A DNA stretch of 64,000 nucleotides, taken from contig JAPPMB010000116.1 of assembly GCA_028819255.1 (NCBI GenBank), positions 34,810-98,809 on the forward strand, read 5' to 3'. Within the stretch, counting starts at the first letter, position 1. Each line of letters starts with the position of its first letter. Both the position numbers and the translations under genes were made by a program. The DNA is from Bryobacterales bacterium (GTDB lineage: Bacteria > Acidobacteriota > Terriglobia > Bryobacterales > UBA6623). Positions 1,686-29,998 of the stretch are shown piece by piece. The notes beneath the pieces were generated by a model that worked only from the letters and a program-made list of their open reading frames with translations, did not search any database and had not been told where the DNA came from.

Positions 1686-2807
1686 ATGGGAATGGTGCGT
1701 GGAAGCCTGCATCGGTCCATTCGGAGGCCCGCGGCCCTTGCCGCGCTCGTTTCGGCGGCGGCGGCGGCCCTGCTCGCAGAGCCGGTCAGGATTGGTTTCG
1801 TCGGCCTTCGGCACGGACACAGCTGGCGCCAGCTCCAGGACGTGACGGGAATTCCGGAGGCGGAGTTCGTCGGGGTTGCGGAATCGATTCCGGGCCTTGT
1901 GGAGGAGGCGCGGAAAGTCCAGCCCGATGCGCACTTCGCTTCCGACTACCGGGAGTTCGTCCGTTCGAGGAAACCGGACGTCATCTGGGCGTTCGTGGAG
2001 AACAACCGCCACTTGGAGATCGTCGAATTCGCGGCGCCGCTCGGCGTCCACGTGATCTTCGAGAAGCCGCTGGCCGGGAGCCTTGCCGACGCCGTGCGGA
2101 TTCGGGAGCTTGCCAACGAGCACGGCATCGAGGTCATGACGAACTACCAGATGGCGTGGTGGCCGTCCAACCACGAGCTTCACCGACAGGCAGCAGACGG
2201 CAGGATCGGAACCGTGTGGCGGCTCCACGGCGTTGTCGGAAACGCCGGTCCGTCGCCGAGAGACCTGCGGCGGAAGGTGTTCTTCGACTGGCTGACCGAT
2301 CCCGAGGCGAACGGCGCCGGCTCACTGGTGGATTTCGGGATCTACGGCGCGATATGGGCAGCCTGGCACAGGGGACTGCCAAGCCGGGTCTACGCGGCCG
2401 TGCACAGCCTTCAGCCGGACCGCTTTCCCAAGGTCGAGGACAACGCGGTGATGGTGCTCTCGTACCCCGATGGCGTCGGCATCTTCGAGGGCAGCTGGAA
2501 CCTGCCTCGCGGCTTCCAGCAGCTGGAGCTGTTCGGAACCTCGGGAAGCCTCTCGATGGACCGCACGGCACTGACCCGCCGTGACGGTCGGAAGCGGGCC
2601 GCGTCCGTCGAGCCGGCTCCGCTCCCGACCACCGACAGCCATCCCATCCGCTACATCGTCGACCGCGTGTCCGCCGGCGAGCCGCTCCAGCACATCGTCG
2701 CCCTGGACGTCAACGTCGACGGGGTCCACATCCTGGAGGCGGCGAAGCGTTCGGCGGAGTGCCGGTGCGCAGTCGCGCTGCCTCTCAAGGATTTCGGGGC
2801 GCCGTAG
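1686..2807 (+). CDS. Gfo/Idh/MocA family oxidoreductase, signal/Tat-like N-terminus
   Basis: 373 aa. The N-terminus [21 protein letters not shown] is followed by the Rossmann start [12 protein letters not shown] typical of Gfo/Idh/MocA enzymes. Diverges from guaB with only 36 bp between the start codons. Confidence 0.8.
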
Positions 2808-2826
2808 GACCGCCGCACCTCAGGGC

Positions 2827-4143
2827 CTATTGCGGCGCGCCTCCCGACTGGGGCTCGACCTGCGCCCGAAACCTCTCGAGCCGTCCTCTTAGTTCCGCAA
2901 CAATCTCCGGCTGTTCGTTCGCGACGTTGTACCGTTCCGACGGATCGACGTCGAGATGGAAGAGTTCGACGCCGTCCACGGCGCGAAGCTTCCACGGACC
3001 GGATCGAACCCCCTGGACCTGGGAGCCGCGGTGGTAGATGAAATCGAGCCGGGGCGACCGGCCGGTGCGGCCGGCCCAGAGGCCTGTGAGATCGTGTCCG
3101 TCCGATCCCTCCGGGATCCCCCCGCCTCCCGCCGCGATCAGCGTCGCGTAGAGGTCGAGCGTTGCGCCCATCTCGGCTGTCACCGTCCCCGGAGGCACCG
3201 TTCCCGGCCAGCGCACAACCATGGGGACGCGCACTCCGCCCTCGTAGGTCGTGTGCTTGGCGCCCCGCAGCGGGCCCGGCGATCCGGCGTGCCAGGGGAC
3301 AACGCCGCCGGACAGCATTCGGTCCGGGAGGTTCAGCCAGGGGCCGTTGTCGCTGGTGAAGACGACGATCGTGTCGTCGCGCTTGCCGGCGTCGTCAAGC
3401 GCCTTCATGATCTCCCCTGCCGACCAGTCGATGGCCTCGATCACATCGCCGTAGAGACCGGCCCTCGACCGGCCACGGAACCGCCCGGCGGTCCGCAGCG
3501 GCAGGTGGGGCATGCTGTAGGCCAGATAGGCGAAAAAGGGCCTGTCCGACTCCTCTCGGATGACGTCCACGACTTCCGCGGTGTAGCGCATGGTGAGCTG
3601 ATCCTGGTCCACCGGATGCTCAACTCTCTCCGCGTTCCGGTAGAGCCAGAGGGGCTCGTCAGTCTGCACCCAGGGCTTGATCATGTCGTTGGAGTACGGC
3701 AGTCCGAACCACCGGTCGAAACCCTTTCCGACCGGCAGGTACTCAGGTCGGGCGTAGCCCAGATGCCACTTGCCGGCCATAGCCGTGCGGTAGCCGACTT
3801 TCCGCAATGCCTGCGGAAGAGTTGTGAGCTCGGCCGGAATCCCCCCTTTGCCGCCGACGCTGGTCCCTCTGACCCGGGCTCGGCTCGGATACCGGCCCAG
3901 GAGGAGCTGGACCCGTGCCGGCACGCAGGACGGCGCCGAGTAGAACGACGTCATCCGCAGGCCCTCAGCCGCAAGCCAGTCCAGGTTGGGGGTTCGGATG
4001 GTGGGATTCCCGAAGACGCCCAGATCGCCGTATCCGAGGTCGTCGGCAAAGAGCACGACGATGTTAGGAGCGCCTGCACAAACGGCCGAGGCGAACAGGG
4101 CGAGGCAGGGCAGTGCCCAACAGGATCGAGACATTGGCGCCAT
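2827..4143 (-). CDS. Formylglycine-dependent sulfatase (arylsulfatase family), secreted
   Basis: 438 aa with a signal peptide. N-terminal NIVVLFADDLGYGDLG and the sulfatase signature C-x-P-x-R (SCVPARVQLLLGRYPSR). The start ATG shares one base with the panC stop (TAATG at 4141-4145 on the minus strand). Confidence 0.9.
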   Translation of the reverse strand: MAPMSRSCWALPCLALFASAVCAGAPNIVVLFADDLGYGDLGVFGNPTIRTPNLDWLAAEGLRMTSFYSAPSCVPARVQLLLGRYPSRARVRGTSVGGKGGIPAELTTLPQALRKVGYRTAMAGKWHLGYARPEYLPVGKGFDRWFGLPYSNDMIKPWVQTDEPLWLYRNAERVEHPVDQDQLTMRYTAEVVDVIREESDRPFFAYLAYSMPHLPLRTAGRFRGRSRAGLYGDVIEAIDWSAGEIMKALDDAGKRDDTIVVFTSDNGPWLNLPDRMLSGGVVPWHAGSPGPLRGAKHTTYEGGVRVPMVVRWPGTVPPGTVTAEMGATLDLYATLIAAGGGGIPEGSDGHDLTGLWAGRTGRSPRLDFIYHRGSQVQGVRSGPWKLRAVDGVELFHLDVDPSERYNVANEQPEIVAELRGRLERFRAQVEPQSGGAPQ

Positions 4144-5006
4144 TATCGCGCCTTAGGCGGGGAGGCGGCGAGATTGTCGATCAGTCGGATCGGGCCGAAG
4201 AACGCCGCAACGGCGATTCTCACGGGATGTTCAATCCTTTCGACGGGCTGGAGCGTGTTCGGGTCCACGATCTCGAAGTAGTCGAGCCGCACATGAGGGT
4301 TCCGCCGGAACAGATCCTGCGCCCGCCTGCACAGGCCCCGAGCGTCGAACTCGTTCGCCTCAATCGCGTTCCGTGCCGCCCGCAGCGTCCGCACCAGGAT
4401 CGGAGCGGCATCCCTTTGCTCCGCACTCAGCAAGGCGTTTCGCGAACTCAGTGCGACTCCGTCCTCCTCGCGCACGGTCGGCACGCCCACAATCTCCACC
4501 GGCATGTTCGCGTCCTCCACGAGGCGGCGGATGATCGCAAGCTGCTGATAGTCCTTCTCCCCGAAGCAGGCGAAGTGGGGCTGCACGATGTTGAGCAGCT
4601 TGAGGACGACGGTGGCGACACCGCGGAAGTGCCCCGGCCTGCTCGCGCCGCAGAGCGTTGAGCCGAGTCCCTCCACCTCCACGTAGGTAGCCGGCCGCCT
4701 CGGATACATCTCTTCGACGGGCGGAGCGAACAGGATGTGCACGCCATGCCTTCCACAGATCCTCAGATCCGTCCCCATGTCGCGAGGGTAGCTCTCAAGG
4801 TCGTCGCGCCGGTCGAACTGGAGGGGATTGACGAACAGCGTCGCGACCAGGAGGTCGCAGTCCGCGCGGGCGTGGTCGAACAGCGCCGTGTGTCCCGCGT
4901 GCAGCGCGCCCATCGTGGGCACGCACCCCACGCGAAGGCCGGATCCCCGGGCGTCCGCCACTCTTCTTCGGAGAGCCGCGATGCGCGTCTCGATTTCGGG
5001 GGCCAT
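4143..5006 (-). CDS. panC: Pantoate--beta-alanine ligase
   Basis: 287 aa with the motif VPTMGALHAGH (HxGH) and overall PanC-like sequence. Lies directly downstream of panB. Confidence 0.93.
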   Translation of the reverse strand: MAPEIETRIAALRRRVADARGSGLRVGCVPTMGALHAGHTALFDHARADCDLLVATLFVNPLQFDRRDDLESYPRDMGTDLRICGRHGVHILFAPPVEEMYPRRPATYVEVEGLGSTLCGASRPGHFRGVATVVLKLLNIVQPHFACFGEKDYQQLAIIRRLVEDANMPVEIVGVPTVREEDGVALSSRNALLSAEQRDAAPILVRTLRAARNAIEANEFDARGLCRRAQDLFRRNPHVRLDYFEIVDPNTLQPVERIEHPVRIAVAAFFGPIRLIDNLAASPPKAR

Positions 5007-23347: not shown

Positions 23348-24056
23348 ATGTCTGCATCTGCCGCACCGTGAGCCCGCGACGTCATCCGGGACATAGCTGC
23401 CTGCGGCCGGTATCACTTTAGTTCGTTCGAGATTCGCTCTGCGCTCGAAGTCTCCGATCAGGCGGCACGCCAATCGCTGAGCCGCTGCGCAGCCAAGGGG
23501 GAGATCGCAAGTTCCGCGCGTGGATTCTATGTGGTCATGCCTCCCGAATACAGGCGTATCGGCTGTCTCCCTGCGCACCAGTTCGTTCGGGCGTTGATGG
23601 AGCACCGCAGCACCCGCTACGTCATCGGATTGCTCTCGGCCGCGCAGTATTACGGAGCGGCCCATCATCGCCCGCAGGGATTCCAGATGATGTTAAGGAG
23701 GAACCGGCCGGCAATCGTGTGCGGATCCGTCAGGGTTGTCTTAGTTGCGTGCAAGGAACTCGCTACCGTGCCAGTGAAGAGCTTCAACAATCCGCGGGGA
23801 CCAGTTCTGGTCTCGACAGTGAAGGCGACAGCGTTCGATCTGGTTGGATACATGCATCGCGCCGGCGGCGTGGTTCGGGTGCTGGGCGTGCCTTCCGAAC
23901 TCGGTGAGGATATTCGTCCGGAGCGCCTAGTTGAAGCTTTCGGGTCCTCGTCGATCCATTGGGCGCAGCGCCTAGGCTATCTCCTCAAGCATGTCGTTGC
24001 CGGGGAAAGAGCTGTGCCTCTCAAGGAGCATGTTCGGCGGAGCGCGAGAAACTATA
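23348..24056 (+). pseudogene. abiEi: abiEi (type IV TA antitoxin/transcriptional regulator), 5' part: premature stop plus IS insertion
   Basis: ATG at 23348, then an in-frame TGA at 23369-23371 (codon 8). The frame continues ARDVIRDIAACGRYHFSSFEIRSALEVSDQAARQSLSRCAAKGEIASSARGFYVVMPPEY..., which is AbiEi-like. The reading frame is broken at 24056/24057 by the IS terminal repeat. Confidence 0.75.
24049..24056. repeat. Target-site duplication, left copy (AAACTATA)
   Basis: Identical 8-mer directly abutting both outer ends of the 34-bp TIRs. Confidence 0.85.
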
Positions 24057-24090
24057 GGGGATTATATACGAGAGTGACCGCAGGGCGGGC
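24057..24090. repeat. Left terminal inverted repeat (IRL)
   Basis: ggggattatatacgagagtgaccgcagggcgggc is the exact reverse complement of 28307-28340. Confidence 0.9.
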
Positions 24091-24140
24091 CGGCGGGGGC
24101 GGGCAGACTCTTCCAGCGATGGCTTTCAGGTGTATCGCGC

Positions 24141-24551
24141 TTAGTACGCCGGTGGCGGCTGTCCGTCTTCAGTGGGAAGCGGCAGCGTGCCGAAATTCGA
24201 CGTTGCGGACTGCAGGTGCTGGATTGGAACGATAGAGAAGCAGTCGTTTGTCAGCGTATCTGACAGCGTACAGTCATTGAAGTACTGGTATACGATGCCG
24301 GTCTTCGTGTTGTACAGAAACACTGTAGGCTGATCTGTGAATGATGTCGTTTCCGTCACGCGGTTCGTGAGTTGGGCTCGAATCGTTGCCGGCTGCATAC
24401 GCCAAGGACCGGGCTCGACAACGACTGTTCCGGCGTCCTGAGAATCCGTGTCCGCGGTCTGGGTGTAGATCACTGGAACTCCTAGAATCACCGCAAGCAG
24501 TCCCCCGGCTATCACCAACCTCGCGAACATCGCTCCCCCTCTGTCGCTCAT
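24141..24551 (-). CDS. Hypothetical membrane-anchored protein (IS cargo)
   Basis: 136 aa. An N-terminal TM helix (FARLVIAGGLLAVILGVPVIY) is followed by a Thr/Val-rich soluble domain. The start overlaps the upstream 61-aa ORF stop (ATGA at 24548-24551). No family recognised. Confidence 0.5.
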   Translation of the reverse strand: MSDRGGAMFARLVIAGGLLAVILGVPVIYTQTADTDSQDAGTVVVEPGPWRMQPATIRAQLTNRVTETTSFTDQPTVFLYNTKTGIVYQYFNDCTLSDTLTNDCFSIVPIQHLQSATSNFGTLPLPTEDGQPPPAY

Positions 24552-24733
24552 GACCGGCCCCTCTCGGGCTGCTTCACATAGCGCACCCGCGCCGGGCGGA
24601 CCAGTGCCTTCGCTGCCTGCTCGAAGTCATCCCACCTCGAGCCCATCCGCAGATCTTCCCGCAGTTCCGCACGGTTCGGCTGGTAGCTCGGATGCACGAT
24701 CTTAACGTCACGCGGCTCGGGCTTCGACTTCAT
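24548..24733 (-). CDS. Hypothetical small basic protein (IS cargo, possible regulator)
   Basis: 61 aa (MKSKPEPRDVKIVHPSYQPNRAELREDLRMGSRWDDFEQAAKALVRPARVRYVKQPERGRS). Translationally coupled to the 136-aa ORF and preceded by a perfect palindrome. No family recognised. Confidence 0.45.
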   Translation of the reverse strand: MKSKPEPRDVKIVHPSYQPNRAELREDLRMGSRWDDFEQAAKALVRPARVRYVKQPERGRS

Positions 24734-24739
24734 GACACC

Positions 24740-24806
24740 TGAATCATAGCATATTTGGCGGTTTTCCGGATTTTCGCCCGATTTTCCTTGCGTATGCTAT
24801 GATTCA
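24740..24806. promoter_or_regulatory. Operator-like 14-bp perfect inverted repeat flanking an AT-rich spacer
   Basis: tgaatcatagcata (24740-24753) pairs with tatgctatgattca (24793-24806). The spacer contains three TTTTC-core repeats (ggttttcc, gattttcg, gattttcc). Starts 7 nt upstream of the 61-aa ORF start. Confidence 0.4.
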
Positions 24807-25099
24807 AGCGGACACATCAGCGGGGAGCCCGTGCCGGGCCGCCTGCTGAATAAACCGACGCAGTGGCGATGGGTAGCTCCCGGAGCCCCGGCGAATAGGC
24901 AGGATTTCACCTAATCTCCGGATGATGTGTCCACGACCCGGCTCCACGGAGCCGGATGGGGGAGACCCGTGGGAAAGATGACTTGCACTGCCTTGTCGGC
25001 AGGAGCATGACTGGTGTCGGGCCATGAAGCTCGCCTATGGGGGAACGGCGGCCCTACGTATTCACCGGGGAGGCTTGACCTGCGGGTGTCCATCCGCAT

Positions 25100-25837
25100 A
25101 TGGGAGACAACATGAAGAAGCACGTACTGCCCGTTGCGGCAGCCATCGCGCTGTGTCTCTGGGCGGCGATCACGCCCGCGAACGCAGCGGAACGATACGA
25201 GGCGGTGGTCAACGCCGTTGCCTGTGACGACAAGCCCGCGATGATCGAGTTCGTTAGGGCACTCAATTCTGGGCAGGACTCTCGTGCGCTGTCCATAGCC
25301 AACAGGGCTCGAAGCTCAGGTGCGTCTTGCACCGTGGTCAAACAGGGAACATTCGTGGCGGGAGCACCTTCTGGATGGGGACTGATCTACTTGCCAGGCG
25401 GTGGCTACTACTCCCCTATGGCTGGGTTTGATCCTGCTCCACGCCTTGCCATGAGAGGCGGCTGGAAATGCAACGAGCAAAGTGAGTTCGAGAAGTCTCA
25501 AGGGATGAGGCAGGCTTCGAATGTGAGCCAGCGCCTGATATTGACCCGCTCTAGGGAAAGGTTCATACTTGCGTTCATGATTCCTGACGGCGGAGTATGG
25601 CTCTTGGAACACTCTCCGAGAGAGGTGAAATTCACGGTTGACGGAGGTGGAACGCACACCATCGAGACTCAGTATGGGAATCTGGAGGCCGTCCTCACCA
25701 ATGAGTTGACAACGGCCCTCAAGCGAGGTCTGAATGTATGGATCGAGATCGTGCCAGACAGTGGCAGGACATACAGCTACAGTGCCAGCCTGATCGGATT
25801 CACAGCGGCGCACGCCTGTGTCAGTCTGCCGATCTAG
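25100..25837 (+). CDS. Hypothetical secreted protein (IS cargo)
   Basis: 245 aa with the signal peptide MKKHVLPVAAAIALCLWAAITPANA|AE. An alternative start exists at 25112. No family recognised. Confidence 0.55.
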   Translation: MGDNMKKHVLPVAAAIALCLWAAITPANAAERYEAVVNAVACDDKPAMIEFVRALNSGQDSRALSIANRARSSGASCTVVKQGTFVAGAPSGWGLIYLPGGGYYSPMAGFDPAPRLAMRGGWKCNEQSEFEKSQGMRQASNVSQRLILTRSRERFILAFMIPDGGVWLLEHSPREVKFTVDGGGTHTIETQYGNLEAVLTNELTTALKRGLNVWIEIVPDSGRTYSYSASLIGFTAAHACVSLPI

Positions 25838-25908
25838 GAACCTAGGAACAGGAGATCGCAGCTTAGGCCGCCCTGGCTTCGGACGCCTGACCGTTGCCGC
25901 CATGAGGT

Positions 25909-26199
25909 ATGATGGTCTCAGTGTCGGAGCAGGAGCAGGACCGCCATCTGGGAGAGTTGCTTGTGGAGCAGCGCAGACTTCGCAGGTCGCTTGCGTGCCT
26001 GAAATCGAAGATCGAGAGGATTAGCGAAAAACTGAAAGCAGCTGTCGAGTCCAATCACGTTAATTTCAAGCATAGGCACAACGACTTCCTCAAGGTTGGT
26101 GGCGGTGATCTGTCCCGCTACATGAAAGAGTACAAGGATGGACTTGAGAGGAAGGGCACACTGGATCGTCAGATTCGAGAAATCGACGGCTATGAGTAG
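25909..26199 (+). CDS. Hypothetical coiled-coil protein (IS cargo)
   Basis: 96 aa with a charged heptad-like sequence (LGELLVEQRRLRRSLACLKSKIERISEKLKAAVES). Ends 12 nt from the convergent transposase stop. No family recognised. Confidence 0.4.
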   Translation: MMVSVSEQEQDRHLGELLVEQRRLRRSLACLKSKIERISEKLKAAVESNHVNFKHRHNDFLKVGGGDLSRYMKEYKDGLERKGTLDRQIREIDGYE

Positions 26200-26211
26200 C
26201 TGTGGATTGTT

Positions 26212-27192
26212 CTAGGCAGCCCGAGCACTGGACGCCCGCCCGTTTTCCTTTATCAGGGCCTTGTAGGTGAGCCGCTTGCCGTCCATGCCGTCCGCAACGG
26301 CCTCTATTTGCCTGATGGTGTCCAGTTCGCGGATGTTGTGCTTGCCCGCAAACTCGTCCACATACCGCTGCAGGTGCTTCGGGCTCATCTTGTGGAACGT
26401 GCCCTTGTGCGCCCGCTTGAGCATGGACCAGAACGATACCACGCCGTTCGTGTGAACCGAGCCCCGGACGTACTCCTTGAGTGAATGCTTCACCGCATCA
26501 TGGTTGTGGGGCAGGCTCTCGTAAGCCTTGGCCTCGTCCGTGTAGACGGTGGCATTGGGATCGGCATGCTCGGCAACGAAGCCCTGTAGCGTCTCCTTGT
26601 CCGTCGAATCGACCGCCTTGGCCGCGACCTTGTTGGTGGCGCGATCCTTCGCGCCGACCACGGCCGCCTTGCCCGTCGGTCCACGGCCTGTCATCGTCTT
26701 GCGCTTCGCATTGCTCATTTTCTTGCGCTTCCCGCCCATGTACGTCTCATCCACCTCCACGGGTCCGGCGAAGTCGCCGGCACCGTCCGCCATGCCGGAG
26801 CGCACGCGATGGGCAAGGAACCACGCACTCTTCTGCGTGATGCCCAGGTCACGGTGCAGCTTCATGCTCGAAACGCTCTTGAGGCTGGTGTTGAGCAGGA
26901 ACGTGGCAAGCAGCCAGTCCTGATAGCCGATCTTCGATCCTTCCATCACCGTGCCGGTCTTGACGCTGAAGAACTTCCGACCGCAGACTTTCTCCCGGCA
27001 GCGGTAGGGCATCGTCTTGTGCGTCGTGCCGACCTGCACGTTGAATGATCCGCAGCGCGGGCACCAAATGCCGTCCGGCCAGCGCTGCTTGACGAACCAC
27101 CTCTCGGCGGCCGCGTCAGTCGGAAACAGCTTGAAGAACTTCTTCAGCGGGATTCCCTCTCGACGTGCCTTGCCCGGTCCTGTTCCTGCCAT
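26212..27192 (-). CDS. IS1595-family transposase
   Basis: 326 aa. It has an N-terminal Zn-ribbon (CPRCGSFNV...YRCREKVCGRKF) and a DDE region (VEVDETYMGG, VYTDEAKAY, HTNGVVSFWSMLKR), as in ISXO2/IS1595 transposases. Confidence 0.92.
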   Translation of the reverse strand: MAGTGPGKARREGIPLKKFFKLFPTDAAAERWFVKQRWPDGIWCPRCGSFNVQVGTTHKTMPYRCREKVCGRKFFSVKTGTVMEGSKIGYQDWLLATFLLNTSLKSVSSMKLHRDLGITQKSAWFLAHRVRSGMADGAGDFAGPVEVDETYMGGKRKKMSNAKRKTMTGRGPTGKAAVVGAKDRATNKVAAKAVDSTDKETLQGFVAEHADPNATVYTDEAKAYESLPHNHDAVKHSLKEYVRGSVHTNGVVSFWSMLKRAHKGTFHKMSPKHLQRYVDEFAGKHNIRELDTIRQIEAVADGMDGKRLTYKALIKENGRASSARAA

Positions 27193-27274
27193 GACTACAG
27201 TTTACAGGAAAGTAACCACGATGTCAAGCAAATTTTGGGAAAATCGTCTGCTAGAATATTTCAAGCAAAAGAAC

Positions 27275-27301
27275 GAGGCCGGCGTTAGCAGCGCCGGCCT
27301 C
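27275..27301. other. Stem-loop 1 in the transposase leader (complete copy)
   Basis: gaggccggcg / ttagcag / cgccggcctc: a 10-bp perfect stem with a 7-nt loop. The counterpart in the deleted copy is at 28125-28143. Confidence 0.6.
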
Positions 27302-27333
27302 GAATGTCGGGGAGATCATACACAACCCGAACG

Positions 27334-27353
27334 CTGAACAAAAGCATGTTCAG
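27334..27353. other. Stem-loop 2 in the transposase leader (complete copy)
   Basis: ctgaaca / aaagca / tgttcag: a 7-bp stem. The counterpart in the deleted copy, with a different stem sequence, is at 28208-28255. Confidence 0.5.
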
Positions 27354-27467
27354 TATAGCATTTGGGCTGTGCCTGTGTCTCCCCAGAGTTGCAGTTATTC
27401 GAGACTGTTGCAGGGGTTGCGCCGGTGCCCTTGCGTCAGGCGATCAAACCGGCTGGAGAAAACAGCT

Positions 27468-27761
27468 ATGAGCAATTCCTACCCGTACAACGACCTAGCG
27501 ATTAGCCTGAATGTCCCGCACAGCCCAGGAGTCTACCTGATTCAAAGCGTGGACGGAACACACATCTATGTTGGACTTGCCGAAGCAAGCATCCGCGATC
27601 GACTCTTGCAGCACTGTGGCGGATCAAGCATGCAGGCATACTGCATCAATCAATGGTCGCCGGCAACCTTCCAGTTTCTGGTGATTTTCGACCGAGAACT
27701 GCGATGGGCTAGGGAACGTGAGTTGCGATTTGCGCTGGGTCCTCGTTGCAATCGCCAGTGA
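27468..27761 (+). CDS. Small GIY-YIG nuclease-domain protein (IS cargo)
   Basis: Internal ATG at 27468 with ggaga 8-9 nt upstream, giving 97 aa. Contains PGVYLIQSVDGTHIYVGLAEASIRDRLLQH (GIY...YVG...R...H) and a downstream RERELRF. Confidence 0.7.
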   Translation: MSNSYPYNDLAISLNVPHSPGVYLIQSVDGTHIYVGLAEASIRDRLLQHCGGSSMQAYCINQWSPATFQFLVIFDRELRWARERELRFALGPRCNRQ

Positions 27762-28002
27762 GTGCGCCTCCTGTACCGTTGTACCTTCCAGTCAGTCGAG
27801 TGAAGTACAGGTCGTAGATCTTGCCTCGCTCGGCAATCCTCAACCGGGCGAGCAGAGGTCCGCCCTCGATAATGATCTTCTTACCGGACAGTCCGCACTG
27901 GTGCTCTCCCGGCCAAAGGATCACGGGGGCTCCTGCCAGGTCGAGGATCCCCCCGCAGAACGCCCGAATTGCTATCCATAATGATGCAAAAGCCAGTTTC
28001 AT
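27709..28002 (-). CDS. Hypothetical small secreted protein (IS cargo)
   Basis: 97 aa with the signal-like N-terminus MKLAFASLWIAIRAFCGG. aaggag lies 8 nt upstream. The ATG overlaps the stop of the transposase fragment (ATGA). The 3' end overlaps the convergent GIY-YIG ORF by 53 nt. Confidence 0.4.
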   Translation of the reverse strand: MKLAFASLWIAIRAFCGGILDLAGAPVILWPGEHQCGLSGKKIIIEGGPLLARLRIAERGKIYDLYFTRLTGRYNGTGGALTGDCNEDPAQIATHVP

Positions 28003-28124
28003 GCGGTTAACTCCTTGTAGGTGAGCCGTCTGCCCTGCATTCCATCACTGTTTGACCACGATGTCAAGCGGTTTTCGGCTTTGTGTATGCTAGGCTCAAG
28101 AGCAAGTGGCAGGGACACGAATCC

Positions 28125-28143
28125 GGCCCGGAATCAGCGGGCC
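28125..28143. other. Stem-loop 1 in the leader of the deleted IS copy
   Basis: ggcccg / gaatcag / cgggcc: a 6-bp stem with a 7-nt loop that ends in CAG, like the complete-copy loop ttagcag. Confidence 0.5.
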
Positions 28144-28207
28144 AGAAAGGAGATGAAGATCATGAGAGTTCTGTCGGAAGCATTCATCCCGCAGCCTCCT
28201 TTGAGTT

Positions 28208-28255
28208 GCCGGGGCTGAAGCTTTGAAGTGCCCGAGAGGGTGCTTCAGCCCCGGC
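28208..28255. other. Stem-loop 2 in the leader of the deleted IS copy
   Basis: gccggggctgaagc (28208-28221) is the exact complement of gcttcagccccggc (28242-28255): a 14-bp stem with a 20-nt loop. Confidence 0.6.
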
Positions 28256-28306
28256 AGCAAACCTCTGTGTCCCTGCTCACTTGAGCAATCATACCTCCTG
28301 CTGACC

Positions 28307-28340
28307 GCCCGCCCTGCGGTCACTCTCGTATATAATCCCC
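28307..28340. repeat. Right terminal inverted repeat (IRR)
   Basis: gcccgccctgcggtcactctcgtatataatcccc is the exact reverse complement of IRL (34/34). Confidence 0.9.
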
Positions 28341-28348
28341 AAACTATA
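28341..28348. repeat. Target-site duplication, right copy (AAACTATA)
   Basis: Identical to 24049-24056. Confidence 0.85.
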
Positions 28349-28464
28349 CGAAGCTCCTGCCGAGCACGAGTGCCGAAAGTGCGTTGCGCTCGAAAGACTG
28401 GCGGCTGTTCGTGAACGCCGATATCGGAGACGGATGGGTGATCCCGCGAGACTACATCACCTAG
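28349..28464 (+). pseudogene. abiEi: abiEi 3' part
   Basis: After removing the IS and one TSD copy, the frame continues ...RNY|TKLLPSTSAESALRSKDWRLFVNADIGDGWVIPRDYIT* with the stop TAG at 28462-28464. Confidence 0.75.
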
Positions 28465-28672
28465 CGGGAAGGCTCTTCGAGCGCCGCTTCGAGGCGCTGG
28501 AGCAGCCGGTCCCCGACTGCCCGGCGCCGGGAAAGCCGAGGCCCGCGCTCGTGGTGGAATACGGCCCAGATTGGCCCCCCATCTTAGGGCGACCGAGGCA
28601 ATAGAGCCGGTAGGGGCGCAGCCCATGTTGGCACCCTTACAAGACGGTCCCCGATCCGGCCGCAGTTCAAGG

Positions 28673-29998
28673 TCATCCCGAGGGCGAGTCCTCTCGGGTG
28701 GATGCCAGTGCGTCGGATCTGAAGGCGAGGCACTGGAAGAAGTCGTCAATTCGTCTGTACTCCCGATCGTCCGAATCCATGAAGACTTCCAATCTTCGGA
28801 TCACTTTGTTCCTAACTTCGCGTGCTGACAATTCGACAAGCTCTTCGTTGGAGAGGATCTCCTCGCGATAAACGCCTTGCCAGCGGTAGCTCCAGACCCT
28901 GACGGAGTACTTGTCTGGTTTTTGTCTGTTGATCGGTGTCTTCTCCATGAAACTCTTCAGCCGGTTCACGAAGGAACGCTCCTTGCGGTTATCGCTGCGG
29001 AAAGCGAAGTCTATCTTGACATCGTGACGTGTGAATGTTATGAACCAGGAAAGCGCGTCACGATGGCCGCCCATCCTCAGCACGGCGTCACCCAAGGTCA
29101 CATCGGTCCATCCCAGCCAGTAGGTCCCCGAGCGGTTGTTGGAAGACGTTGGCGTAACGCCCCGGCCTCTCAAGTAGTTTGCCACCGCAGCCCGCAGTTC
29201 CATCGGATTGTGTCTGGACTCCTTCACCAGGTTGACGAGCGAGTTGCGGTACTCTGCCCGGTCTGCTGACACCATCCCGCGGACACCATCGTCGCCGTGC
29301 TTCCCTAGGACCCGGCGCAATCTCTTCAGGATTGCGCGATGGTCGTCGAGAAGCACCCTGTAGCCCTCGCCGCCGGGACGAAACCACCGCTCGATCATGT
29401 CGAGGTACTGCCTGATGAAGGTTTGCACGCTTGGACACGTAAACTCCCCAGCCGCCGAGACCGTACGGATGGCTTGGAGGACCGAGTCCCAACCGACATG
29501 GGCGATGCTCGGGAAGTTATCGCTTCCTTCCAGCGAGGTGGTCAACAGGACGCTTCTCACCGTGTGGCCCTCGTGCTTTCCTAGTAGCGTCTCTTCGTAG
29601 CGCCTGACTTGATCAAGATGGTGGGGAGAAGCCGACTCCGTCTTGTTCTCGACGGCGATCAAGCACTTCTCCGTCTTGAAGCGGATCGTGATGTCGACGT
29701 GGTCCCGTTCTCTCCAGACCTCGACATTCCCCGCCTCGAAGCTGGTCTCGGGAAGAGGCTTCGTATCCGCCGCCGGGAATTGGCCATTGACGTGGTTGAC
29801 GAACCATCTTAGGAACCGCGAGCCGATTCCATGGGTGTCGGCGGGCCGGAGCAGCCATGCCAGCACGTTGCTGTGGCGTATTTCGTAATTCGCGTACTGG
29901 AGAACATCGAACGTGTTGAATTTCCGTGGCCCCCCGAACTTCCGGTGGTATGCCCGAAACCTGGGAGCGTCGATCAGGTTCCGCAGGTCGTCTTCCAT
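28673..29998 (-). CDS. PD-(D/E)XK nuclease-superfamily protein with an uncharacterised C-terminal domain
   Basis: 441 aa. The N-terminal block is FNTFDVLQYANYEIRHSNVLAWLLRPADTHGIGSRFLRWF, followed by the D...E-x-K core (HVDITIRF...CLIAVENKTE) and DQVRRYEE. The C-terminal ~250 aa have no motif I recognise. Confidence 0.75.
   Translation of the reverse strand: MEDDLRNLIDAPRFRAYHRKFGGPRKFNTFDVLQYANYEIRHSNVLAWLLRPADTHGIGSRFLRWFVNHVNGQFPAADTKPLPETSFEAGNVEVWRERDHVDITIRFKTEKCLIAVENKTESASPHHLDQVRRYEETLLGKHEGHTVRSVLLTTSLEGSDNFPSIAHVGWDSVLQAIRTVSAAGEFTCPSVQTFIRQYLDMIERWFRPGGEGYRVLLDDHRAILKRLRRVLGKHGDDGVRGMVSADRAEYRNSLVNLVKESRHNPMELRAAVANYLRGRGVTPTSSNNRSGTYWLGWTDVTLGDAVLRMGGHRDALSWFITFTRHDVKIDFAFRSDNRKERSFVNRLKSFMEKTPINRQKPDKYSVRVWSYRWQGVYREEILSNEELVELSAREVRNKVIRRLEVFMDSDDREYRRIDDFFQCLAFRSDALASTREDSPSG

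Follow-up and report, generated by a model that had tools for sequence, protein, structure and literature searches.

The region at positions 27193-28340 of a 64,000-nucleotide stretch of DNA from a Bryobacterales bacterium (contig JAPPMB010000116.1; the whole stretch is here called the window) is the left 1.1 kb of an insertion sequence (IS) of 4,284 bp that spans 24057-28340. The element is an IS1595-family transporter IS with cargo, and it is a chimera of a copy that lost its transposase gene and a second copy in which that gene is intact. The original prediction for this region was that one ~290-nt leader, present in two diverged copies, keeps two covarying hairpins and serves as a functional RNA or regulatory end of the IS. 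The account favoured here combines the chimeric transporter IS with two 'leaders' that are not homologous, a Rho-independent terminator upstream of the intact transposase gene, and a lineage-specific module of ~200 nt that is under selection and would act as an insulator; taken as a whole, it is judged probable.

The ends of the element were defined from the window itself. The sequence GGGGATTATAT occurs at exactly two sites, 24057 on the plus strand and 28340 on the minus strand, and extension of the two gives a perfect 34-bp inverted repeat: GGGGATTATATACGAGAGTGACCGCAGGGCGGGC at 24057-24090 (plus strand; the right end in transposase orientation) and its inverted match at 28307-28340 (minus strand; the left end), where 41 nt are identical to both ends of a sister IS. 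The 8-bp sequence AAACTATA can be read directly on both flanks, at 24049-24056 and 28341-28348, and the repeats together with this target-site duplication define 24057-28340 as the mobile unit. The repeat tip GGGGATTAT is common to this element and 60+ relatives, and 8-bp duplications flank dozens of relatives with the same tips. The intact transposase gene (26212-27192, minus strand) encodes 326 amino acids, 87% identical to the transposase of the sister IS, a Bryobacterales IS1595 element, and contains the ISXO2-like DDE domain PF12762 (DDE_Tnp_IS1595; 4.8e-40, 137.5 bits against a cut-off of 27) and the N-terminal zinc ribbon PF12760 (Zn_ribbon_IS1595; 9.4e-06, 25.9 bits against 25.4). This combination of DDE domain, zinc ribbon and inverted repeats with an 8-bp duplication places the element in the IS1595 family. 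Genes unrelated to transposition sit between the repeats, as in a transporter IS. One is a small GIY-YIG nuclease-domain gene of 97 amino acids at 27468-27761 on the plus strand (Pfam GIY-YIG, 3.1e-07, 31 bits against a cut-off of 22.6); an IalB-like open reading frame (ORF) gave a weak match below threshold (20.1 bits against 22.1), and other ORFs are also present.

Relatives were compared at 86 loci (L001-L086), 79 taken from genomes and seven from metagenome or metagenome-assembled genome (MAG) records; L080 and L081 are two records of one locus, that of the sister IS in a Bryobacterales MAG. The sister element is 3,950 bp long and has the same 41-nt repeat, its own duplication (TTATGCAG) and a leader of 439 nt. 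In the five next-closest elements, whose transposases are 73-78% identical, the leaders are ~76-117 nt, and of the 66 loci with paired ends, 45 have a left repeat that starts 64-117 nt ahead of the transposase match. Multi-copy families have the termini GGGGATTAT...ATAATCCCC with 8-bp duplications. Variable DNA, from ~450 bp to more than 2 kb, sits downstream of the transposase gene in the relatives; the short left end and variable downstream DNA correspond to the transporter-IS layout known for the IS1595 family.

The segment at 27999-28340 is the remnant of an IS copy from which the transposase gene was deleted, as had been proposed. Its inner end, at 27999-28046 on the minus strand, consists of the last 15 codons of a second transposase gene (DGMQGRRLTYKELTA followed by a stop), which correspond to the C-terminus of the intact transposase (DGMDGKRLTYKAL...), with 82% identity over 34 nt between 26259-26292 and 28013-28046. 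Next to it lies a truncated promoter copy (28047-28078, minus strand) with TTGACA at 28062-28067 and a spacer between the -35 and -10 boxes that has lost ~10 nt, as read from the 24-nt repeat of 27215-27238 (83% identity to 28055-28078) and from alignment to the sister leader. Beside the promoter of the intact transposase gene there is no inverted repeat, and this gene must use the one ending at 28340, a dependence that the original prediction had recognised and that the perfect 34-bp repeats and 8-bp duplication bear out. The element is a chimera, in which the left repeat, the ~200-nt module, the crippled promoter and the 15 terminal codons come from the copy without a transposase gene; inward of these lie the GIY-YIG cargo gene, the terminator and the intact transposase gene with its own promoter. 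An ancestral copy with the order repeat, module, promoter, transposase and cargo, the last including the terminator, would have lost its transposase gene together with ~10 nt of the promoter spacer. The deleted copy would then have joined a second, diverged copy that supplied promoter, transposase, cargo, orfB and right repeat, with loss of the inner ends of both copies at the fusion.

The two 'leaders' have only the 24-nt promoter piece in common. Outside it, the Smith-Waterman score of 27230-27467 against 28070-28306 was 16. Dinucleotide-shuffled sequences gave 17.4 +/- 2.4, and the real score was equalled or exceeded in 409 of 500 of them. As a positive control, 28070-28306 scored 231 against the sister leader (shuffles, 18 +/- 1.9). 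The individual structures described in the original prediction are real: stems are present at 27274-27284/27292-27302 (11 bp, perfect), 27334-27340/27347-27353, 28125-28130/28138-28143 and 28207-28221/28242-28256 (15 bp, perfect), an outer pairing of ~28090-28118 with 28267-28288 appears in the minimum-energy fold of both strands, and the two shared strings and the 15-codon C-terminus are where they had been placed. The regions are not two diverged copies of one leader, however, and their hairpins cannot stand at equivalent positions; since the regions are not homologous, the argument that structure had been retained despite sequence drift falls. The loops ending in CAG, offered as a further likeness, are not kept on one strand in the homologue of the first hairpin. 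That the hairpins occur in the same order in both regions, and that both regions fold better than shuffles, speaks for a shared leader, but homology stops at the promoter piece, the first intact-copy hairpin is homologous to a terminator downstream of the sister's transposase gene, the second has no homologue in any fetched locus, and most relatives have just 64-117 nt from repeat to gene, with the module of the deleted copy found in none but the sister. A single conserved leader in two copies is accordingly regarded as very improbable.

The transposase promoter reads TTGACA-N17-TAAACT at 27199-27227 on the minus strand (score of 10 out of 12 in a promoter scan) and ends 6 nt before the ATG. 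Its -35 box lies within the string common to both copies, GCTTGACATCGTGGT. The relatives inspected have the same layout, with 5-7 nt from the -10 box to the start codon, which implies that the transposase mRNA is leaderless. On that reading the DNA upstream of 27229 precedes the promoter and would not be part of a 5' untranslated region, so the suggested role as a 5' untranslated regulator does not fit. Within the promoter spacer, the inner part of the left repeat always recurs in inverted form (for example, GAGAGTGACC compared with GGTTACTTTC), and this inverted copy co-varies with the repeat across the family (window 27199-27227 and 28307-28340; L001, L015, L052, L082, L085 and others). The pattern suggests either that the transposase binds its own promoter or that the two parts pair by fold-back in read-through RNA.

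The first hairpin of the intact copy (27274-27302, transposase strand) is an ordinary Rho-independent terminator by its sequence: an 11-bp stem with 10 G-C pairs and a 7-nt loop is followed directly by a T-run (TTCTTTTGCT), 45 nt upstream of the -35 box. That the hairpins might be ordinary terminators had been foreseen as an outcome contrary to the original prediction, and it holds for this one but does not extend to all of them. The stretch 27237-27314 is homologous, in the same orientation, to L080 6290-6362, and the hairpin itself to L080 6304-6330, which lies ~320 nt downstream of the sister's transposase stop and was likewise flagged as terminator-like. From this position of the homologue, 27237-27314 appears to derive from the cargo or downstream DNA of the deleted copy and to have come to lie before the -35 box of the intact gene. 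A hairpin or terminator was found 45-85 nt upstream of the -35 box in all three elements with extra upstream DNA that were checked (the window element, L080 and L048). The terminator at 27274-27302 would shield the leaderless transposase promoter from upstream transcription, and its position in the three elements fits the shielding from read-through that is documented for the left end of IS200 (PMC4513863).

The second hairpin of the intact copy (27334-27353) is the tip of a long imperfect hairpin of ~80 nt (27308-27388, minus strand; z = -3.4 for the fold of 27303-27467). No homologue of it was found in any fetched locus, and it therefore has no support from conservation. Adjoining the terminator, on the strand opposite the transposase, an extended -10-like box, TGCTAGAAT, can be read at 27249-27257 (plus strand) facing the GIY-YIG gene; in the sister IS it is conserved within the homologous stretch, with its counterpart at ~6340-6350 of L080 (minus strand). 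This putative promoter could drive the GIY-YIG gene in the window and an 84-amino-acid ORF in L080, in which case the GIY-YIG mRNA would have a structured 5' region, 27258-27467.

The end of the deleted copy contains a structured module of ~200 nt (28088-28292, minus strand) that was delineated from its folds, its copy in the sister IS and its substitution pattern. Five stems are predicted. The outer stem P1 pairs 28267-28288 with 28090-28118 and forms a 24-bp stem with one G·U pair in L080; P2 (28209-28254) and P5 (28122-28146) contain the two hairpins of the original prediction for this copy; and P3 and P4 make up the centre (28160-28204). Minimum-energy folds of the module gave z = -6.3 and -7.3 for the two strands. 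The sister IS has the same module at L080 4646-4842, within its 439-nt leader, and P5 lies inside a 31-nt block that is identical in both elements. Between the window and L080, 10 of 118 paired columns differ, compared with 35 of 87 unpaired columns (8.5% versus 40%; Fisher p = 1e-7). All the changes in paired columns keep the pairing, with four double compensations, two G-U-compatible changes and none of 59 pairs broken; random placement of the same substitutions breaks 7.8 pairs on average. Identity to L080 is 100% in the 5' arm of P1, 91% in the centre plus P5 (90 columns), 80% in P2 and 25% in the junction J1, against 65% at fourfold-degenerate transposase sites, which served as the neutral benchmark. 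A core more conserved than the fourfold sites indicates purifying selection on the sequence of the module, and the retention of pairing between its two copies suggests that the stems are selected as well. Derivation of the outer stem from the terminal repeat was considered and rejected (similarity of AGTGA(CC)GCAGGG, p = 0.18 against shuffles), as was a small ORF on the transposase strand (MNASDRTLMIFISFLAR), whose ATG is lost in the sister IS and whose changes are all non-conservative.

The module occurs in this element and in one sister only. Neither the rest of the window nor 470 kb of related loci yielded another copy with a covariance model built for it (R2), so the many copies with duplications of their own that mark a miniature inverted-repeat transposable element or another nested mobile element were not seen. 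Metagenomes scanned with the module core or with the lineage-specific repeat gave no hits, and scans of viral contigs gave only chance matches in phage genes or none. An Rfam scan, proposed with the original prediction, found no family at threshold in the 64-kb window; a permissive search of 25800-28800 and 24000-25200, at E up to 10, gave nothing above chance level. Absence from the other members examined, multi-copy ones included, shows that the module is not a general feature of IS1595 and is not needed for transposition. The idea of a structured IS end is thus upheld for the deleted copy, whose end holds a conserved module apparently constrained by base pairing, but not for IS1595 elements at large.

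The DNA of the window derives from a sponge metagenome, and the sponge-metagenome runs X1 and X2 contain contigs with an L080-type copy of the module. Extra contigs from both runs match its outer stem and P5 (window 28109-28166 and 28267-28284) around a different interior of ~108 nt, with L080-like flanks, and one of them has the same depth as the window's genome. They appear to belong to a third variant, in which P1 and P5 of the module are retained. As their leader flanks are the same, they give no sign of a nested mobile element in a new context.

The module would most likely act on transcripts that enter through the left repeat, as an insulating or regulatory accessory outside the transposition machinery. 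A PD-(D/E)XK nuclease-family gene (28673-29998, minus strand) lies upstream and is co-oriented with the transposase gene, which makes read-through into the element plausible; genes co-oriented with the transposase are present upstream of both the window element and the sister IS. P5, the most conserved stem, is rich in G+C and is followed on the transposase strand by a U-rich tail; it was flagged as terminator-like in L080. This action on entering transcripts is put forward tentatively, its mechanistic step being a guess. Several points weigh against the favoured account and this part of it. The pairing statistics come from two full module sequences, and the consensus structure was derived from the same two, which makes them circular in part. 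Compensation occurs nowhere but in P1 and P2, both long perfect palindromes, where gene conversion from arm to arm could mimic selection, and the G-U evidence on the active strand is tied, one to one. In the window the tail of P5 has only four T in eight positions and was not flagged by the terminator scan, the unpaired core is conserved beyond the needs of a simple insulator, and none of the RNA-seq runs searched for the sequence contain it. The order of events behind the chimera is likewise one that we infer.

Three other explanations of the module were weighed. It could be a small gene on the strand opposite the transposase, with a structured mRNA, a Shine-Dalgarno sequence (AAAGGAG or GGGAGG) and an 18-codon ORF at 28162-28218 (MRVLSEAFIPQPPLSCRG) that has P2 at its stop and would encode a leader peptide or toxin-like product. 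The sister IS (MRVLTEALIPQPPVNCRD) retains the Shine-Dalgarno sequence, ATG, ORF length and stop position, with conservative substitutions at four of the five replaced residues, and the contigs of the third variant again read GGAGGTGACGCCGATG after P5 although their interior differs. The changes comprise five nonsynonymous and one synonymous, however, and synonymous positions stand far above the 65% neutral benchmark, which points to constraint at the nucleotide rather than the protein level; moreover, the 'Shine-Dalgarno' forms one side of the P4 stem, nothing in the protein database matched the open frame that crosses the module, and no convincing conserved promoter was found. A small gene is therefore considered unlikely. 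An equally unlikely explanation is a palindromic insertion that works, if at all, as DNA (protein-binding, cruciform or inert), that two elements of recent common origin share and whose arms are kept alike by intramolecular gene conversion. It would account for the equal folding of both strands, for compensation seen only in the long inverted repeats P1 and P2, and for the dispensability of the module in the other relatives examined. It is difficult to reconcile with a 90-nt core, unpaired stretches included, that is 91% identical beside a J1 of 25% and fourfold sites of 65%, a contrast that indicates selection and not recency; nor is the module a repeated genomic element, with one copy in the window and none in the 470 kb of related loci, and it resembles the terminal repeat no more than expected by chance.

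An element-encoded trans-acting or guide-like RNA with a part in transposition, like the IS110 bridge RNA or the IS605 omega RNA, would suit a multi-stem fold of ~200 nt in the non-coding end beside the repeat, with a hypervariable junction (J1) and a third variant that appears to keep P1 and P5 while swapping the interior. To our knowledge, the IS110 bridge RNA and the IS200/IS605 omega RNA are universal in their families, and their partners are DEDD recombinases or TnpB. Here the transposase is of the DDE type, the repeats are ordinary and the 8-bp duplications are rich in A+T, and multi-copy relatives with intact duplications are entirely without the module; presence in active family members together with an RNA-guided recombinase or nuclease, as expected of a guide RNA, was not found. 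Between the module and the ends or targets of the element there was no significant match (the 7-mer GGGATTA does not exceed chance expectation), and duplex energies of the module core against the rest of the element revealed no site common to both elements, a comparison of two sequences with little power. A guide-like RNA is hence held to be highly improbable. A lineage-specific module under selection, which may act on incoming transcripts in the tentative manner set out above, is the reading retained.

A second structured RNA-like motif, of ~175 nt and separate from the left-end hairpins, lies near the right end at 24786-24958 (minus strand). Within it, a block of 164 nt (24792-24955, minus strand) has 93% identity to the sister IS, above the conservation of the transposase gene. 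The covariance model R1 has seven instances, with E-values from 1e-10 to 1e-49: window 24786-24958, L080 6810-6981, L066 2970-3147, L086 7815-7992, L069 5694-5867, L084 3121-3298 and L082 7354-7529. All seven share the strand of the transposase gene and separate the cargo from the orfB operon; their elements come from Acidobacteriota, Alphaproteobacteria and Chloroflexota MAGs. In the alignment fitted to the model, pairing is seen in 89% of cells, and both partners change in 16 pairs, including nine of the ten in a long-range helix. These values were reached by none of 500 shuffles, slid controls pair at 37-51%, and G-U cells outnumber A-C cells by 26 to 15. No Rfam family matches the motif, and none of the 14 pattern hits from one of the viral-contig scans scored with R1.

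The motif lies shortly upstream of orfB (24548-24733, minus strand), a small conserved second gene of 61 amino acids. In nearly all of the 86 related loci, minimal 1.5-kb copies included, tblastn located homologues of 55-61 amino acids immediately inward of the right repeat. The OrfB consensus is ..V..V.PSYQPS.AEL.EDLR...TFEEA.KALV.PVKVRYV, and OrfB has no match in Pfam, NCBIfam or PDB. An extended -10 box, TGCTATGAT, was noted at 24743-24751, between the right-end motif and orfB. The element would on this evidence carry two candidate structured RNAs, one weakly sampled and one well supported. A clade of IS1595-family elements that encodes its own structured non-coding RNAs, the right-end motif near orfB and the left-end module in one lineage, either of which may regulate transposition or cargo with OrfB, is a possibility that we hold with considerable doubt. 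Were it correct, the general idea of the original prediction, a structured RNA in IS1595, would be right by way of a different sequence and a different argument. Its statement that no functional structured RNA had been described for IS1595-family elements agrees with Rfam 15 and the literature search, in which no RNA motif for these elements was found.

Other features of the element and its surroundings were recorded. ORF97 (27709-28002, minus strand) is an orphan and possibly not a gene; among 5.8 billion proteins it has no homologue but itself. Its ATG overlaps the stop of the transposase remnant (ATGA), an arrangement that echoes the coupled transposase-methyltransferase pair in L085, where an intact methyltransferase gene (2715-4289) has its start overlapping the transposase stop. 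The cargo of relatives includes a methyltransferase, proteases and tRNA genes. In minimal elements the 'non-coding' tail of ~450 bp (L001 3963-4189, L009, L024, L031 and L073) includes decayed fragments of an N6/N4 DNA methyltransferase with the motif DLIYLDPPFN, which occupy the spacer between the transposase gene and orfB. A tRNA-Ala(CGC) lies at L082 6055-6130, 70 nt past the transposase stop (ARAGORN), and a 103-nt tRNA-like sequence with a class II body at L080 7066-7168 scored 48 bits in Rfam and was not called by ARAGORN. An open frame of 217 amino acids (28096-28749, minus strand) begins outside the element, crosses the left repeat and reaches into the module; it is probably spurious or a disrupted host gene. 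Runs X1 and X2 also contain contigs that join both flanks without the element (joint 24054/28379) at ~5-10 times the element's depth, with 32 diverged letters in place of 28341-28378; they come from a related strain or a paralogous locus without the insertion and speak for a recent insertion here. A blastn search of a plasmid collection gave no match.

A locus previously read as an IS and a deleted copy with conserved leader hairpins can now be described as one 4.3-kb mobile unit with its ends, cargo and history defined. It is also a cautionary case, in that the same order of hairpins is no evidence of conserved structure unless homology of the sequences has been established. Two candidates emerge from it, a left-end module that is restricted to one lineage and under clear purifying selection, and a wider right-end motif with good covariation beside a conserved small protein; either could reveal how cargo-carrying elements control expression.

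Among known systems, the IS110 bridge RNA and IS200/IS605 omega RNA resemble the module in being structured RNA-like elements of ~200 nt in a non-coding IS end. The module differs from them in its absence from almost all relatives, in its place beside an ordinary DDE transposase and in the lack of any guide-target complementarity found. The left end of IS200 has a terminator against impinging transcription, a 5' stem-loop with a regulatory role and the antisense small RNA art200 (PMC4513863). As in IS200, hairpins separate the element end from the transposase start, one of them being a Rho-independent terminator positioned against outside transcription, and additional structure is present, its regulatory role being a feature of IS200. 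Unlike the present element, IS200 belongs to an unrelated family with an HUH transposase and a single-strand mechanism, and its stem-loop lies in the 5' untranslated region and hides the ribosome-binding site, whereas here the mRNA is apparently leaderless and the structures are upstream of the promoter.

In work attributed to Davis, Simons and Kleckner in 1985, IS10/Tn10 is said to be protected from external promoters by fold-back inhibition, and to have RNA-OUT. The likeness is that RNA structure involving end sequences would make entering transcripts unproductive, which for the window element is a prediction, and the clade's inverted copy of the inner repeat in the promoter spacer, co-varying with the repeat, parallels the IS10 logic. 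The 200-nt module is far larger than the IS10 structure and restricted to one lineage.

The closest comparison is with the IS1595 family itself, which, according to PMC3129680 and its citation of Siguier, Gagnevin & Chandler 2009, includes transporter IS that carry passenger genes. The window element shares with them an ISXO2-like DDE transposase with a zinc ribbon, inverted repeats, an 8-bp duplication and unrelated passenger genes. It departs from a typical transporter IS in that the copy is chimeric, with a transposase-deleted left copy joined to an intact gene that has no left repeat, and its clade departs from the known ones in having a conserved small second gene, orfB, inside the right repeat and, in some members, candidate structured non-coding modules.

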